From positions 34,809 through 98,808 of the forward strand of contig CAMNND010000001.1 of assembly GCA_946545035.1 (NCBI GenBank): 64,000 nucleotides of DNA. Reading direction: 5' to 3'. Position numbers and translations under genes: made by a program. This document shows, piece after piece, positions 19,560 to 30,029 of this stretch. Below the pieces are notes generated by a model. It saw only the letters and a program-made list of their open reading frames with translations, was not told the origin of the DNA and searched no databases. How positions within the stretch are numbered: the stretch's first letter is position 1; every line of letters starts with the position of its first letter. The DNA is from an uncultured Clostridium sp. (GTDB taxonomy: Bacteria > Bacillota > Clostridia > TANB77 > CAG-508).

Positions 19560-22500
19560 ATGAGTATTGACACAGCCAACGGATATATATCTCAAGTTGT
19601 TCTTCCTCCAAAAGAAGAAGGCGACATTGAAAGATTATATTTAATTAAAGATAAAAATGCGCAAGATAATATTAAACTTTTACAATCTGATTTAACATCT
19701 TTAGATAGTGAATTAAATACATTAGATAATAAAATAGATAATATCGAAATTCCTAATATTTCTAATTTAGTTAGTACAGATGATTTAACTAATACTGTTT
19801 CAGGTTTAATTAGCAAAAAAGAAACAAATGATAACTATGTAACTTGGTCCAGTTTACTTACTTATTATTCTAACAATGCTACTTTAAAAAATAATTATGC
19901 CCATATTACAGATGGAATAATTGATAATGCAACAATTAATCATGAAAATGTAAATGGTTTATCTGAAAATTATGCGCATATTGCTCAAGGAAAAATTATC
20001 AATGCAGTAATTGATTACAATAATGTAGATGGGCTAAATGAAAATTACGCCCATATAACTGATGGTATAATTAATAATGCAACAATAAATTATACAGATA
20101 TTAATGATTTAAATGATCATTATGCAAGTATTTCAAATGGAATAATTGATAATGCAAGCATAGATTATACAAAAATTAATAATTTAAATGATAATTATGC
20201 TCATATAACGAATGGCTCAATTGATAATGCAACTATTAGCCATCAAAAAATTGAAGATTTAGGTAATAATTATGCTCATATTGTCAATGGGATTATTGAT
20301 AACGCGAATATTGATTATGCTAATGTTAATAACTTAAATACTAATTATGCACATATTACAGATGGAATTATTGACAATGCAAATATTGATCAAGCAAAAG
20401 TTAATAATTTAGACACTAACTATGCGCATATTGAAAATGGAGTTATTGATAATGCCACAATTGATCAAGCTAAAGTTAATAATTTGGATGCTAATTATGC
20501 ACATATTCAAAATGGTGTTATTGACAATGCAAATATCGATCAAGCAAATATTAACAATTTAGATGCTAATTACGCACATATTACAAATGGAACCATTGAT
20601 AACGCAAATATTAGTTATGCAAATGTTAGTAATTTAAATGCTCATTATGCACATCTTGAAGATGGAGTTATTGATAATGCTCTAATCGGATATGCTAATG
20701 TTGATCAATTAGATTCTCATTATGCAGAAATTGATATGGCTAATGTTAATAATGCTTGAATTGAAAATGGTGTTATTAAAGATGCCGCAATCTCTGATGC
20801 AAAAATACTTGGAGTTAGTGCAAATAAACTTACCGCAGGAAAAATAGATGCGGCAAACATTAATGTAATAAATCTTCGTGCAGATAATTTAATTGTTACT
20901 AAAATTAATGGACAACCTGTTATTGGTGGATATACATTAGTAGACCCCGCAATCTCAGGATATATAGATAAAAATCCAAGCCAAGAAAAATGGTATGAAT
21001 TTTATAATAATTTATATACTCTTACTGTTGATACTGTAGTAGATCCTAATAAAAATTATTATACCACTTCTGATTCAGTTGAGTTATATGACCAAGCTAC
21101 AATCGACGGAATGCTTGAAAATATAAATGCAAGAATAGATTCTCAAATTGAAACTTGAACAGTAGATGAATTACCTACTCTAAATAACTATCCCGCAAAT
21201 CAATGAAATACAAATAAATTAAAAGATGCTCACATTGGGGATATTTGTTATGTTGTTAATGCGGCAGATGATTATAATGGCTATACATACCGTTTTGCAT
21301 ATGATAATAAAAGTCAACAATATAGTTGGATTTTAATTCAAGACAATGATACAGCTGCTACTCTTGGACGAATTACTCAACTTGAAGAATTTAATAATCA
21401 ACTTGTTCATTGAGAAGATGCTACTGATGAAGGCGTTACTACCGTTAGAGGACGTTTCACAGAACTTTCAGGTCGAATTGATAAAGTTGTAAAATCGTCT
21501 ATTCAGCTTTGACATACGGCAGAAAATACAACCCTTCCTGATAAACCAACTTCTGCAATTACAAGTGTTTCAACAGAAGGTAATATTTGAACTTCTGTTG
21601 TACCAATATATAATGCTAATTATCCTTATTATTTCTATTGTTGGCAATATCAGTATGAAGATGAATCTTATGATTGATCCGCAGTTGTTTATGATCAAGC
21701 TACCACAGAAGCCCAAGAGCGAGCAAGAACTGGTATAGCAAATGCGGCGACTGCACAAAGTACAGCAGAAGATAATATTAGATCAAGTGTTCAACTTTGG
21801 TTCACAAAGAAGGATAAAGAAGAATTTCCTAATAAGCCTACTAGTCAAGTTACTAATAACAGCGCAACAGGAAATACTTCATATAATAGATGAAATCTAG
21901 TTGTTCCTACCTATAATATAGGTTATCCATATTATTTCTATTGCTATCAGCAACAAAAAGGTGATGGAACTTATCAATGAACAGATGTTGTATATGATGA
22001 TATTACCTCTGCGGCAATGGAAACTGCGCGATCTGCTATTAGCACCTTTGAAACTTTTGAACAAACAACTTTCAAAGAAGTTACTGATACAATTGATACT
22101 CAAGGAACAACTATTACTCAATTACAGACCGCAACTGAGAAAGCGTTATCTCAAGGTATAGAATATATAGTAGGAACGCATGGAACTACCGCAACTAGTA
22201 ATTGAACTGGTGTTACTCAAGAAGAACAATTATATACCGGTAAACAAATAGCTTATTATATGACTAGTGCTGGTGTAAGTAATAATCCTGCTACATTAAA
22301 TCTACAATTATCAGATGGAACTTGAAGTGGCCCAATTAATGTTAAAATTAATAATACAGATGTAACAGATCAATATCCAAAAGATACAGTTATAAAACTC
22401 ACTTATGACGGCGGAGCTTGAAAATCTGATAATTATAATTCAGATACAAACTATTATGATCGTGAAGCTTATAAAGCAAGCGTAACTGCTAACGGAGCTA

Positions 22501-28500: not shown

Positions 28501-30029
28501 TTGGCGATTTAAATGGCGCTAGTAATTACAGTACAACAACTCAAATGAATACTGCAATTTCTAATGCAGTAGGTGATATCTCTATTGGTGGTAGGAATCT
28601 ACTTGGCAACACCGAGAACAGGTCTGGGTCGGCTATAGTTGGTAATGCTGCCGCGACAAGTACGTTCGGAAGCATTGGCAATTACAACGATACCGTCTCA
28701 CTGTATTCGCTTGTTAACTACGACGGGTATTCCAATGCTGTGTCCTGTGCGACATCGACCAGCACTGGCAATCGAGGAGCTGGCTGGTACACAAAAGCTG
28801 GAGAAATCATAGCTGGTGAAACCTATACATTTTCCTGCCGCGTCAAGTGCTCGATTGCCACAAGCGTCCATATGCATACAGCTTGGCGTAACGGCTCTGC
28901 AACCGCTGGCTATACAGGATGGACTGCTGAAGGAACAAAAGCAATAATTGCAAATACTTGAACTGACTACTCGTGCACGTTTGTTCCAAACAGCAGCGCG
29001 AAGCTCGACTGAGAATTCTTCGTCGCTATATGCATCACTGGTTCCTCAAGTGGAGCAACGTATCAAATCGCGCATGCAAAGCTCGAAAAGGGCAATAAGG
29101 CAACTGATTGATCACCAGCGCCAGAGGATCAGACAGCTTATGTTGATTCTATTCAAGTTGGCGGTAGGAATTTACTAAAAGCGAATGACGCACTAGTCAC
29201 ACCAGCAAGCTATAATGCATATGACCTTTATGTGACAGAACCCATCGAGAGTGGTCAACCGTATGTCCTCCAATTGTGGGACGTTGACGTAAGCCATTCA
29301 GGAAAAACCGCTGCGCAGCTTGGCGTGAATGTTTATTATTGCGGCGGAAGCGTGGCACTAGGAGGATGAATTGGTACCAATTACTTTACCAGCGGCCATG
29401 CCGATCACCTAACCTTGTATTTTACAGCTTATACGTCTGGCTCCACAGTCAACAGTGGGGGCAACGTCGGCGGGTCTGCGAATGCACTGTCGCAATCGAC
29501 CGTAACGAACACCACCAAGAAGTACATACGCCTTTACAATTCAGTTCCATCGGCAGACGGCACAAAGAACATGTCTGTCGGATCATGGAAACTCGAAAAG
29601 GGAACCAAGGCAACTGATTGGACGCCAGCACCAGAAGACGTCGATGCAAACGTCGAAGACATAAACGCAAGTCTTGTAGCAACAGAGAAGTCTCTCACTG
29701 AGGATATTCAAAAAACGAATGACGATTTGGGAGGAGTAACTGACGCTATCGAACAGTTGAATACCACTGTTCAGCAGGATCGAGCTAACATGGGTAACTG
29801 GCTCACTTTCACCGAAAGTGAAGCTCTAACAATCGGCAAAGCAAATAGTAAATTTAAGATTACTATGAACGAGAAAGAACAAGCGTTCATGTATGACGAT
29901 AAAAAGCTTGCCTACACATCAGGTGACAGTTTCGTAGCACCTCGTATGGATGCCGACGAGCTACATATCGGCAACTGAATGTGGGTTAATCGAAACAATG
30001 GAAATCTTTCCCTCAAATGAATTGGTTAG
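19560..30029 (+). CDS. Giant tail fibre / receptor-binding protein (~3489 aa) read as one frame-0 ORF through ~35 TGA codons.

- N-terminal 11x 25-aa beta-solenoid repeats (NYAHITDGIIDNATIN...).
- Internal ~100-aa duplication (PYYFYC motif).
- Ala-rich 20-aa repeats and GYQTASQV repeats.
- Four carbohydrate-binding-like modules, each ending KLEKGNKATDW(T/S)PAPED, three of which are followed by IQVGGRNLL.
- Strongly mosaic GC content.
   Basis: Track ORFs 19560-20759, 22017-22205, 22821-23336, 23466-25016, 25164-25919, 26139-27344, 27705-27980, 28545-28961 and 29415-29978 are all in frame 0, and every one ends at TGA. I hand-translated the gaps without meeting TAA/TAG. True stop TAG ~30027-30029. 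RBS ttaggaggataaataat + ATG 19560. Confidence 0.6.
19891..20715 (+). repeat. 11 tandem 75-nt (25-aa) coding repeats, consensus NYAHIT(D/N)GIIDNA(T/N)I(D/N)Y(A/T)(N/K)(V/I)N(N/D)L(N/D)x (beta-helix/solenoid stalk of the fibre)
   Basis: Periodicity read directly in the translation of gene 19560-30029. Confidence 0.7.
23760..24070 (+). repeat. About 5 tandem 60-nt (20-aa) Ala-rich coding repeats (DATQKANAAQSAAEATAAA / DATEKANAAQSAAISAAAT); another copy at ~24590-24660 and GYQTASQV(D/E)SAITSK x4 at ~24780-24900
   Basis: Read directly. These are coding repeats inside the fibre gene. The antisense and +1 ORFs in the track here are GC-rich shadows. Confidence 0.65.

Follow-up and report, generated by a model that had tools for sequence, protein, structure and literature searches.

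A probable recombination mosaic in the giant tail-fibre gene of a TGA-recoded phage

The DNA analysed in this study (the window) is a stretch of 64,000 nucleotides (nt) from contig CAMNND010000001.1 of assembly GCA_946545035.1, filed under an uncultured Clostridium sp. It carries, at 19560–30029, a predicted phage tail-fibre gene encoding a protein of 3489 amino acids (aa), in which TGA is read as tryptophan (genetic code 4). This giant fibre is probably a recombination mosaic, with distal modules exchanged with other phages, among them standard-code phages of about 49% GC. Acquisition from a higher-GC, standard-code source had been proposed in a first-pass annotation of the window. The evidence given below supports it for at least one module (module 3, shared with the standard-code contig L029) and makes it plausible for the rest, in view of a TGA-free cassette in strain L027 and of strain breaks at the junctions. 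Related contigs are cited by handle (L and a number).

The fibre is a chain of self-contained domains: a presumed attachment part, a putative solenoid stalk, reused B, C, D, E and G modules with Ala-rich units, four jelly rolls resembling carbohydrate-binding modules (CBM), and a C-terminal domain. Recombination with the homologous fibre genes of co-occurring phages would swap distal modules, or patches, one module at a time. Composition and strain-homology breakpoints lie on or beside module motifs, and the conserved motifs at the module ends, with other conserved stretches, probably act as crossover points. Standard-code modules would be functional on arrival, as a code-4 phage reads TGG normally; later changes from TGG to TGA would be neutral and would accumulate in the imported modules.

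Reading frame, genetic code and third-position composition

The fibre frame (19560–30029) contains 33 in-frame TGA codons. An overlooked in-frame TAA or TAG, named earlier as the finding that would undo the single-gene interpretation, was looked for in all 3489 codons and none is present. The remaining two frames of the same interval hold 143 and 261 TAA or TAG codons, and the probability of the fibre frame staying open by chance, calculated from base composition, is about 1e-75. Nine segments of at least 100 aa lie between TGA codons, as they had when the open reading frames (ORFs) were first joined into one gene. A gene of 3476 aa is called at the fibre position in sister strains. The frame would be expressed as a single polypeptide.

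The meaning of TGA was read from a comparison with L029. This contig is 54 kb long, has 48.9% GC and a tape-measure gene, contains no in-frame TGA and uses TGA once as a stop. Module 3 of the fibre is 77.6% identical in DNA and 88% identical in protein (159 of 181 aligned residues) to L029 10331–10875, and the DNA match covers exactly 28584–29128, from IGGRNLL to ATDWSPAPED. Six Trp residues are conserved; L029 encodes all of them by TGG, and the window uses TGG at three and TGA at three (28959, 29010 and 29109). The last of these lies within the invariant ATDW, at the Trp position of the stretch ...GNKATDWSPAPED. Because conserved Trp positions carry TGG in L029 and either TGG or TGA in the window, TGA in the fibre gene means Trp. 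Swaps between TGG and TGA at Trp positions run both ways between sister strains. All 42 listed genes of the window stop at TAA or TAG, with TAA dominant and no TGA stop.

The GC content at third codon positions (GC3; GC1 and GC2 for the first and second positions) is 0.07–0.18 in the AT-rich parts of the fibre gene and 0.3–0.62 in the GC-rich parts, while GC1 and GC2 are nearly unchanged. Segments were defined by a two-state model on third codon positions (Table 1). The alternation of GC content seen in the first pass was thus confirmed and is sharper at third positions, and it resolves into eight segments, not two GC-rich blocks; two AT-rich patches (24483–24707 and 25959–26129) break up the first of these blocks. 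Trp is encoded by 25 TGA and 5 TGG codons in the low-GC3 segments and by 8 TGA and 30 TGG codons in the high-GC3 segments (Fisher p = 4e-7); TGG is indeed favoured in the GC-rich blocks (30/38), but with 8/38 Trp codons as TGA these are not purely standard-code. All seven composition junctions are in frame. The GC3 switch at 27282 falls inside the end motif of module 2, between ATDWTPAP and ED, and that at 28604 immediately after the GGRNLL of module 3. Other late genes have GC3 of 0.09–0.16 and early genes 0.10–0.28; beyond 24018–~32200 the anomaly leaves only a mild tail, as far as 33892. The genes next to the fibre, first given as GC-rich over 30040–32331, are so (the second ends at 32332), except that the 556-aa gene is itself a mosaic in which the first ~120 codons are AT-rich (GC3 0.10–0.15, against 0.3–0.6 in the remainder).

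An allelic difference within the GC-rich region was found at 25860–26129. Over these 90 codons the window differs from strain L019 by 61 synonymous and 6 non-synonymous changes; relative to L019, the window shows 51 changes from G/C to A/T and 6 in reverse, and its GC3 is 0.23 compared with 0.74. The flanks carry ~0.15–0.2 synonymous differences per codon, without bias. Old AT- and GC-adapted alleles of one module were therefore recombined into near-identical backgrounds, over ~270 nt. Gene conversion from an internal paralogue as the origin of the AT-rich patch 25959–26129 was rejected, its best matches being the orthologous positions in other strains.

Cassette exchange and the source of the GC-rich modules

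Related strains were retrieved by exact-protein look-up with the TGA-free gene 33924–34334, which yielded many independent assemblies, 89–96% identical. Four of them from different samples (L019, L021, L024 and L026; ENA/Logan) are collinear with window positions 22203–28519 at 91.5%, covering six of the seven composition junctions. L028 matches fibre residues 2562–3004 at 89%, as far as the linker ahead of module 3, and its fibre closes with the C-terminal domain seen in the window, with a 545-aa gene next; it confirms the flanks of the last junction. An assembly chimera at the GC transitions, which had been named as the outcome that would overturn the proposal, is thus countered by independent assemblies at six junctions and on either side of the seventh. 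The pattern recurs independently in a phage from another sample, the closest relative in IMG/VR (L008 and L018): there too the fibre is AT-rich proximally and GC-rich distally, built from different sequences, and L018 has 12 TGA and 28 TGG codons.

Homology between strains is interrupted at the composition junctions. L027 tracks the window at 95.5% up to 24027, where homology is lost. The L028 homology block begins at 27234, within the end motif of module 2, and the L019-type strains diverge from the window at ~28521. All strains are collinear again between ~31005 and ~31980 (L022 and L028 at 31005, the L019 type at 31453, the others at 31932–31977), a zone that runs from inside the 556-aa gene to inside the 203-aa gene. 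Downstream of the linker ...GASNYSTT.QMN.AIS, the insert differs among three strain types: two CBM modules in this window, an unrelated ~200-aa domain in L028, and a ~500-aa segment fused to an H-lectin-like C-terminus in the L019 type. That C-terminus ends the giant fibre in the L019 type and the separate 556-aa gene in the window. Replacement cassettes also differ in composition and code: the one in L020 is of native composition (GC3 0.12–0.23; 13 TGA, 1 TGG), the 578-aa cassette of L027 is TGA-free (13 TGG; GC3 0.46), and that of L023 has no TGA and 3 TGG (GC3 0.59). The recombination tracts are ~0.27–3 kb long.

The four CBM-like modules are each ~180 aa. They start with (I/V)GGRNLL at residues 2215, 2403, 3010 and 3201, and the end motif KLE(K/R)G(N/T)(K/R)ATDW(T/S)PAPED is at residues 2383, 2567, 3181 and 3351. 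The count of four first given for the end motifs stands, and IQVGGRNLL follows two of them, not three. Both end motifs are the consensus of 60 homologues. The junction motif (~60 nt) was found at 82–89% DNA identity in phages of Riemerella, Mannheimia, Staphylococcus, Mammaliicoccus and Shigella, in each case in tail genes (INPHARED). A scan of 185,579 species genomes also placed it in prophage regions of Bacillota and Bacteroidota; many genomes carry it, but no match is close. Since it occurs in phages of unrelated hosts, it is a pan-phage module boundary and not a Firmicute speciality; the motif had been ascribed to Firmicute prophage tail fibres, where it does occur, but Bacteroidota and Proteobacteria phages carry it too. 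No paper on the IGGRNLL or KLEKGNKATDWxPAPED motifs was found in the searchable literature.

The gene order of L029 equals that of the window cassette, with a 419-aa fibre-tip protein followed by a Flg_new protein and a CBM_5_12 protein. The AT-rich proximal modules have ~50% identical relatives in standard-code phages of 39–56% GC (L001–L003). The code-4 relatives retrieved are all AT-rich (GC 0.26–0.33), and the GC-richer relatives (L001–L005, L015, L017 and L029) use the standard code. Transfer would have run from standard-code to recoded phages, because the backbone is AT-rich, the only close homologue lies in a uniformly 49%-GC standard-code genome, and TGA codons would block export. When the GC-rich blocks were searched against INPHARED by megablast and blastn, only the ~60-nt motif was matched. 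Prophages of sequenced bacteria were rejected as recent donors, their matches being distant (mostly 25–35%).

A long fibre-like ORF was also found in L006 (IMGVR_UViG_3300028887_000206; 28% GC, standard code), where 3734–14131 encodes 3465 aa with 54 TGG and no TGA, so that the family has giant fibres outside the recoded phages as well. As a separate observation, the baseplate protein of the window has 48% identical relatives in the 46%-GC standard-code phages L015 and L017 (IMGVR_UViG_3300045988_*), so that the phage family covers both codes and a GC range of ~20%.

Alternative explanations, known systems and significance

Several points weigh against the reading of the fibre as a mosaic with modules from standard-code phages. 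About half of the codons conserved between L029 and module 3 differ synonymously, which is near saturation. Their third-position changes (33 from A/T to G/C, 25 from G/C to A/T) have no AT bias; amelioration of module 3 relative to L029 was rejected on this balance, and L029 is not the direct donor. Two protein searches and a scan of the same 185,579 species genomes for a recent donor gave no relative above 79% identity, and the best relative of any GC-rich block is 79–88% identical in protein. Some donors may be higher-GC code-4 phages instead of standard-code ones. The divergence point of the L019-type strains lies ~65 nt upstream of GGRNLL, not on the motif. Neither the 64 kb of the window, out of a genome of ~145 kb, nor 14 related fragments contain a tRNA, and so no suppressor; one may lie elsewhere in the genome. 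Finally, the exact insert of modules 3 and 4 (28584–29640) has no independent copy in the collections searched, and this single cassette might be a strain-level chimera; neither the JGI metagenomes nor IMG/VR contain an exact 36-mer spanning the junction of the terminal cassette, and two standard-code ORF fragments of the cassette are not on record in protein look-ups.

A wider assembly chimera, in which the assembler joined an AT-rich recoded phage to GC-richer phages at short motifs, is very improbable. The junction motifs are conserved as DNA across phages and could mislead an assembler, and one insert has no second copy in the collections searched; however, four independent assemblies repeat six junctions, L028 has the last cassette flanked on both sides as in the window and ends in the same C-terminus, and L018 has the same pattern from different sequences. 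Conserved Trp positions in the GC-rich blocks are moreover encoded in part by in-frame TGA, which rules out a standard-code contig as their source, the seven junctions are all in frame, and the internal DNA repeats of the fibre gene do not exceed 160 nt or 84% identity. A native origin of the GC-rich blocks, with their composition set by the amino acids encoded or by codon-usage selection (for expression timing, for instance), is hardly credible. The GC-rich parts are somewhat enriched in Ala, Gly, Thr and Ser, and the Ala-rich repeat lifts GC1 and GC2 locally, but the shift is at third positions (GC3 from 0.12 to 0.5) with GC1 and GC2 little changed, and paralogous modules of the same type exist in both compositions within the gene. 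The two alleles of the patch 25860–26129 in near-identical strains, the wholesale replacement in strains and the homologue in a uniformly 49%-GC phage also speak against native blocks.

Donors that were themselves higher-GC code-4 phages, bringing TGA along so that no code boundary was crossed, are quite unlikely overall. The 8/38 Trp codons given as TGA in the GC-rich blocks, a share of 13/20 in the two downstream GC-rich genes, and the lack of a near-identical standard-code donor in the searches would fit such an origin. Set against it are the only close module relative, which is in a standard-code phage with TGG at 6/6 common Trp positions, the TGA-free sister cassettes at the same locus (TGA to TGG 0:13 in L027 and 0:3 in L023), and the code division among the relatives retrieved, the code-4 ones being AT-rich and the GC-richer ones standard-code. 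The remaining alternative concerns the product: internal initiation, proteolysis or poor read-through of TGA could yield several shorter fibres, which we regard as unlikely. The closest IMG/VR relative has three genes here (754, 465 and 2873 aa), D-C units are free-standing elsewhere, and the gene boundary near the C-terminus lies elsewhere in the L019 strains; the frame is nonetheless uninterrupted over 10.47 kb, sister ORFs are of similar length, the standard-code L006 ORF runs over 3465 aa without any stop, and the sequence gives no indication of a cleavage site.

If the fibre is a mosaic of exchanged modules, the code difference might further act as a one-way valve: standard-code modules would be imported unchanged and, after TGG has become TGA, would not return, so that recoded lineages would hoard modules. 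This idea is doubtful. Were it true, giant multi-module fibres could be explained by hoarding, the TGA share and GC3 would date each import, and the IGGRNLL and KLEKGNKATDWxPAPED stretches would be pan-phage crossover sites that enable module traffic.

Tail-fibre and receptor-binding genes of tailed phages swap modules between unrelated phages, as in the P2, Mu, T-even and lambda fibres and in lactococcal and streptococcal receptor-binding proteins. The fibre of the window resembles these in its conserved proximal part, its swapped distal parts, its breaks at conserved linker motifs and in strains that differ mainly at the tip. It differs in size (3489 aa, at least 15 domains, four CBM modules) and in that the partners differ in genetic code and by ~20% GC, which makes the imports visible in GC3 and Trp codons. 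Accessory carbohydrate-binding modules decorate the tails of lactococcal (Firmicute) phages. Like these and the CBM4, CBM9 and CBM22 superfamily, the modules described here are ~180-aa beta-jelly-roll units inserted as self-contained pieces in a tail protein; unlike characterised CBMs, to which they are only 11–18% identical, they have conserved end motifs of their own. Mosaic fibres, tails decorated with CBMs and TGA-recoded phages have each been described before, and their combination is modestly new in detail. The modestly new elements are that a recoded phage has so large a fibre with several CBMs, that modules imported from standard-code phages and then partly recoded in place can be read codon by codon, and that there are strain-level breakpoints at a conserved, undescribed module boundary.

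Fibre tips set host range, and the rate of exchange sets the pace of host-range evolution. In this system the contrast in composition and code labels every imported piece, so that breakpoints, tract lengths and motifs can be read directly across co-circulating strains. Stop-codon recoding does not cut the phage off from the pool of receptor-binding modules, at least for import. Standard-code gene callers break the fibre gene into more than 30 pieces, and such fibres are invisible in most phage catalogues. A module with conserved ends is also a candidate plug-in unit for host-range engineering.

Fibre anatomy and genome context

The features of the fibre and of the two genes that follow it are collected in Table 1.

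Table 1. Features of the fibre region and GC3 segments of the fibre gene (window positions, or fibre residues where marked aa)
Feature	Position	Strand	Evidence or remarks
Predicted giant modular tail-fibre ORF (code 4, TGA = Trp)	19560..30029	+	ATG 19560 to TAG 30027–30029, 3489 codons
N-terminal ~107 aa, presumed virion attachment	19560..19880	+	AT-rich native composition; role suggested by position
Eleven tandem 25-aa repeats (NxNYAHIxxGxIDNAxIxxxxVN), then a degenerate twelfth copy	19881..20705	+	Tandem Repeats Finder, period 75 nt; aa 108–382
B module (PYYFYC / YIYTCEQ), duplicated	21489..22043	+	aa 644–720 and 740–828; self-blastp 49–51% identity, E 1e-20 to 1e-22
Ala-rich 19-aa repeat (ANAAQSAAxxxAxxDATxK), five copies	23733..24017	+	Low-to-high GC3 junction 24018 exactly at its end
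High-GC3 segment 1, with B-like and G-like modules	24018..24482	+	GC3 0.59; TGA 0, TGG 3; 92.5% identical in L019-type strains
High-GC3 segment 2, including D-C unit	24708..25958	+	GC3 0.47; TGA 2, TGG 5
D-C fibre unit	25017–25814	+	Model pLDDT (predicted local distance difference test) 91.5
AT-adapted patch inside GC-rich region	25860..26129	+	Nearly the same protein as in L019 strains; synonymous sites recoded
CBM-like module 1, GC-rich (VGGRNLL ... KLERGNKATDWTPAPED)	26202..26744	+	Motifs; jelly-roll model, pLDDT mostly 55–88; family consensus
CBM-like module 2, GC-rich (VGGRNLL ... KLEKGNRATDWTPAPED)	26766..27296	+	Pfam CBM_4_9; model pLDDT >90
AT-rich native segment, two D domains and G module	27282..28604	+	GC3 0.12; TGA 10, TGG 0
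CBM-like module 3 (IGGRNLL ... KLEKGNKATDWSPAPED)	28584..29130	+	Shared with standard-code phage L029
CBM-like module 4, GC-rich (VGGRNLL ... KLEKGTKATDWTPAPED)	29160..29640	+	Motifs; weak self-similarity to other modules; PHROG tail/minor-structural matches
C-terminal coiled-coil-like stretch and small terminal domain (... HIGNWMWVNRNNGNLSLKWIG)	29641..30029	+	Matches L028 and L029 C-termini
Adhesin-like accessory protein of 556 aa with a Flg_new repeat and a weakly H-type-lectin-like C-terminus	30040..31710	+	Pfam; part of variable cassette
203-aa CBM_5_12 protein	31721..32332	+	Pfam 67 bits; 50% identical to L029 homologue, same gene order
Low-state segment	aa 1–1486		GC3 0.13
High-state segment	aa 1487–1641		GC3 0.59
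Low-state segment	aa 1642–1716		GC3 0.17 (patch 24483–24707)
High-state segment	aa 1717–2133		GC3 0.47
Low-state segment	aa 2134–2190		GC3 0.12 (patch 25959–26129)
High-state segment	aa 2191–2574		GC3 0.48
Low-state segment	aa 2575–3015		GC3 0.12
High-state segment	aa 3016–3489		GC3 0.45

The 3489-aa product is supported as a tail fibre or adhesin. The earlier identification as a tail fibre was borne out by the position of the gene in the late structural module, after baseplate-like genes and ahead of the lysis genes, by PHROG tail matches (phrog_1330 'tail protein', E 2.6e-22), by the fold of the D domain, and by tblastn matches to tail fibres annotated in the Bacillus phages JL and Shanette. 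All these similarities concern single domains, and the matches in deposited phages all fall in annotated tail proteins. A Pfam scan of the whole fibre protein gave no match, and scans of segments were needed. Likewise, self-blastp with the entire fibre returned the identity match alone, and chunked queries were used. These showed reuse of modules B (4 copies), C (2), D (at least 5), E (2) and G (IDGGNIITG; 3). The duplication first noted for the PYYFYC module was recovered, with two more diverged copies at residues 1499–1596 and 2082–2187 (E 5e-6 and 2e-16). The Ala-rich repeats described earlier are present, with a period of 19 aa rather than 20, and an additional 15-aa repeat occurs in the fibre.

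Residues 1–107 share 64% identity with the N-terminal part of the 754-aa L008 fibre. The first-pass count of eleven clean 25-aa repeats holds; their span was shifted from 19891–20715 to that in Table 1, and the degenerate copy was added. Pentapeptide-repeat structures (4yfo, 2j8k and 3du1) were matched by phmmer over residues 128–409 (E 1e-10 to 1e-6), with Pfam Pentapeptide_4 at 15.6 bits against a cut-off of 38. The repeats may form a pentapeptide-repeat-like beta-solenoid stalk. As in Rfr-fold pentapeptide proteins (Np275/Np276, 2j8k; designed beta1, 4yfo), the repeat consists of five pentapeptides with a central hydrophobic pattern; unlike them, it has a period of 25 residues in place of a 20-residue coil, and the fold of a trimeric fibre could differ.

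The D domain (~100 aa) superposes on the baseplate/tail-fibre chain of phage Pa193 (104 columns, root-mean-square deviation (rmsd) 3.7 Å, 23% identity), at a marginal E of 0.046 in the PDB, and on tail-fibre and minor-tail models in BFVD with E down to 5e-7 and 21–42% identity among the listed matches of ~100 columns. Compared with the tail fibre of Pseudomonas phage Pa193 (PDB 9b45, chain 2) and mycobacteriophage minor tail proteins, the D domain alone matches; no solved structure is related to the C domain. Other phages encode the D-C unit as a whole, free-standing protein of 282–454 aa. The AT-rich segment 27282–28604 shares 94.5% identity with L019 strains and 94.7% with L028. The C-terminus (29641–30029) is 61% identical to that of the L028 fibre, with the final 20 residues identical, and 28% identical to that of the L029 fibre-tip protein.

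The CBM-like character first ascribed to the four modules gained support from Pfam and from predicted folds. CBM_4_9 (PF02018) scored 26.6 bits, above the gathering cut-off of 25.9, on residues 2205–2600 (modules 1 and 2), with the best stretch in module 2; on the segment with modules 3 and 4 it scored 19.9 bits, under the cut-off. Many homologues bear a precomputed PF02018 assignment. An AlphaFold2 model of the pair of modules 1 and 2 has two beta-jelly rolls (overall pLDDT 79), and Foldseek matched it to a tandem CBM22 (4xup, E 1e-8), to CBM4-2 (2y64, target template-modelling score 0.58, rmsd 4.5 Å) and to CBM4 (1gui). The CBM modules presumably bind host cell-wall polysaccharide.

The + strand genes at 241–38503 are rich in in-frame TGA. 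They encode the fibre, large baseplate-like and accessory lectin-like proteins and, downstream of the fibre, a holin (Phage_holin_5_2) and a GH25 endolysin. Upstream of it lie large structural genes: a phrog_32343 homologue (9473–12226) and proteins of 1723 and 1179 aa. TGA makes up ~80% of the Trp codons in the late genes. On the – strand, replication genes within 41462–63438 (NrdD, PolIII-alpha, RecJ-like, primase, DnaB, AAA_24, ATP-ligase, GyrA and GyrB) have no in-frame TGA and encode Trp by TGG. No relatives of the replication module were found by megablast and blastn against INPHARED. The longest sister contig is 144.7 kb, and the record names (STEW19, SHIW14) suggest a cattle or rumen-type habitat, in which the phage would be abundant.

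TGA-recoded (code 4) gut and rumen phages include the 'Agate' clade, of 127–154 kb (Borges et al., bioRxiv 10.1101/2021.08.26.457843). The phage of the window resembles these in the size of the sister contig, the cattle-type samples, the low GC, the TAA-dominated stops, and the late use of TGA as against TGA-free replication genes. It is consistent with the clade by size, habitat and code alone, the window containing neither a terminase nor a suppressor tRNA. That study leaves recombination and horizontal exchange across codes undiscussed, and the words do not occur in its text.

Candidate recombination genes on the – strand encode an AAA_24 protein (54096–55100), a RecJ-like exonuclease (48664–50439) and a RuvC-like resolvase (39184–39672). 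The AAA_24 protein is one that we take to belong to the Sak4-like single-strand annealing/RecA-like family, and the three proteins could drive relaxed homologous recombination in the fibre. No reverse transcriptase turned up in domain scans of the window; no search aimed at a diversity-generating retroelement was made.

The endolysin (36896–38503, + strand) combines a GH25 domain, a central amidase/peptidase-like region and PG_binding_1, and is the most recoded gene (19 TGA, 3 TGG), which fits recoding as a delay of lysis. Between holin and endolysin, a 448-aa beta-propeller-like gene (35598–36944, + strand) is missing from strain L025, an indel in the lysis cassette. Adjoining the lysis module on the – strand, five small genes with in-frame TGA (38547–41069) encode a 220-aa protein, the RuvC-like protein, a dUTPase and two small ORFs; recoding is therefore not strictly strand-bound. 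A homing-endonuclease-like gene between the NrdG-like and NrdD genes is polymorphic for presence and absence. The window is without it (at ~41938, between 41462–41938 and 41928–43841); it is I-HmuI/NUMOD-like in L019 (18022–18612), L020 and L022, and of the HNH_3 type in L025 (9391–10008). The 327-aa product of 56802–57785 (– strand) has a GIY-YIG nuclease domain together with a coiled coil and, at its N-terminus, a membrane helix; its gene has 5 TGA and no TGG codons and looks like a late-code gene lodged among the TGA-free replication genes.

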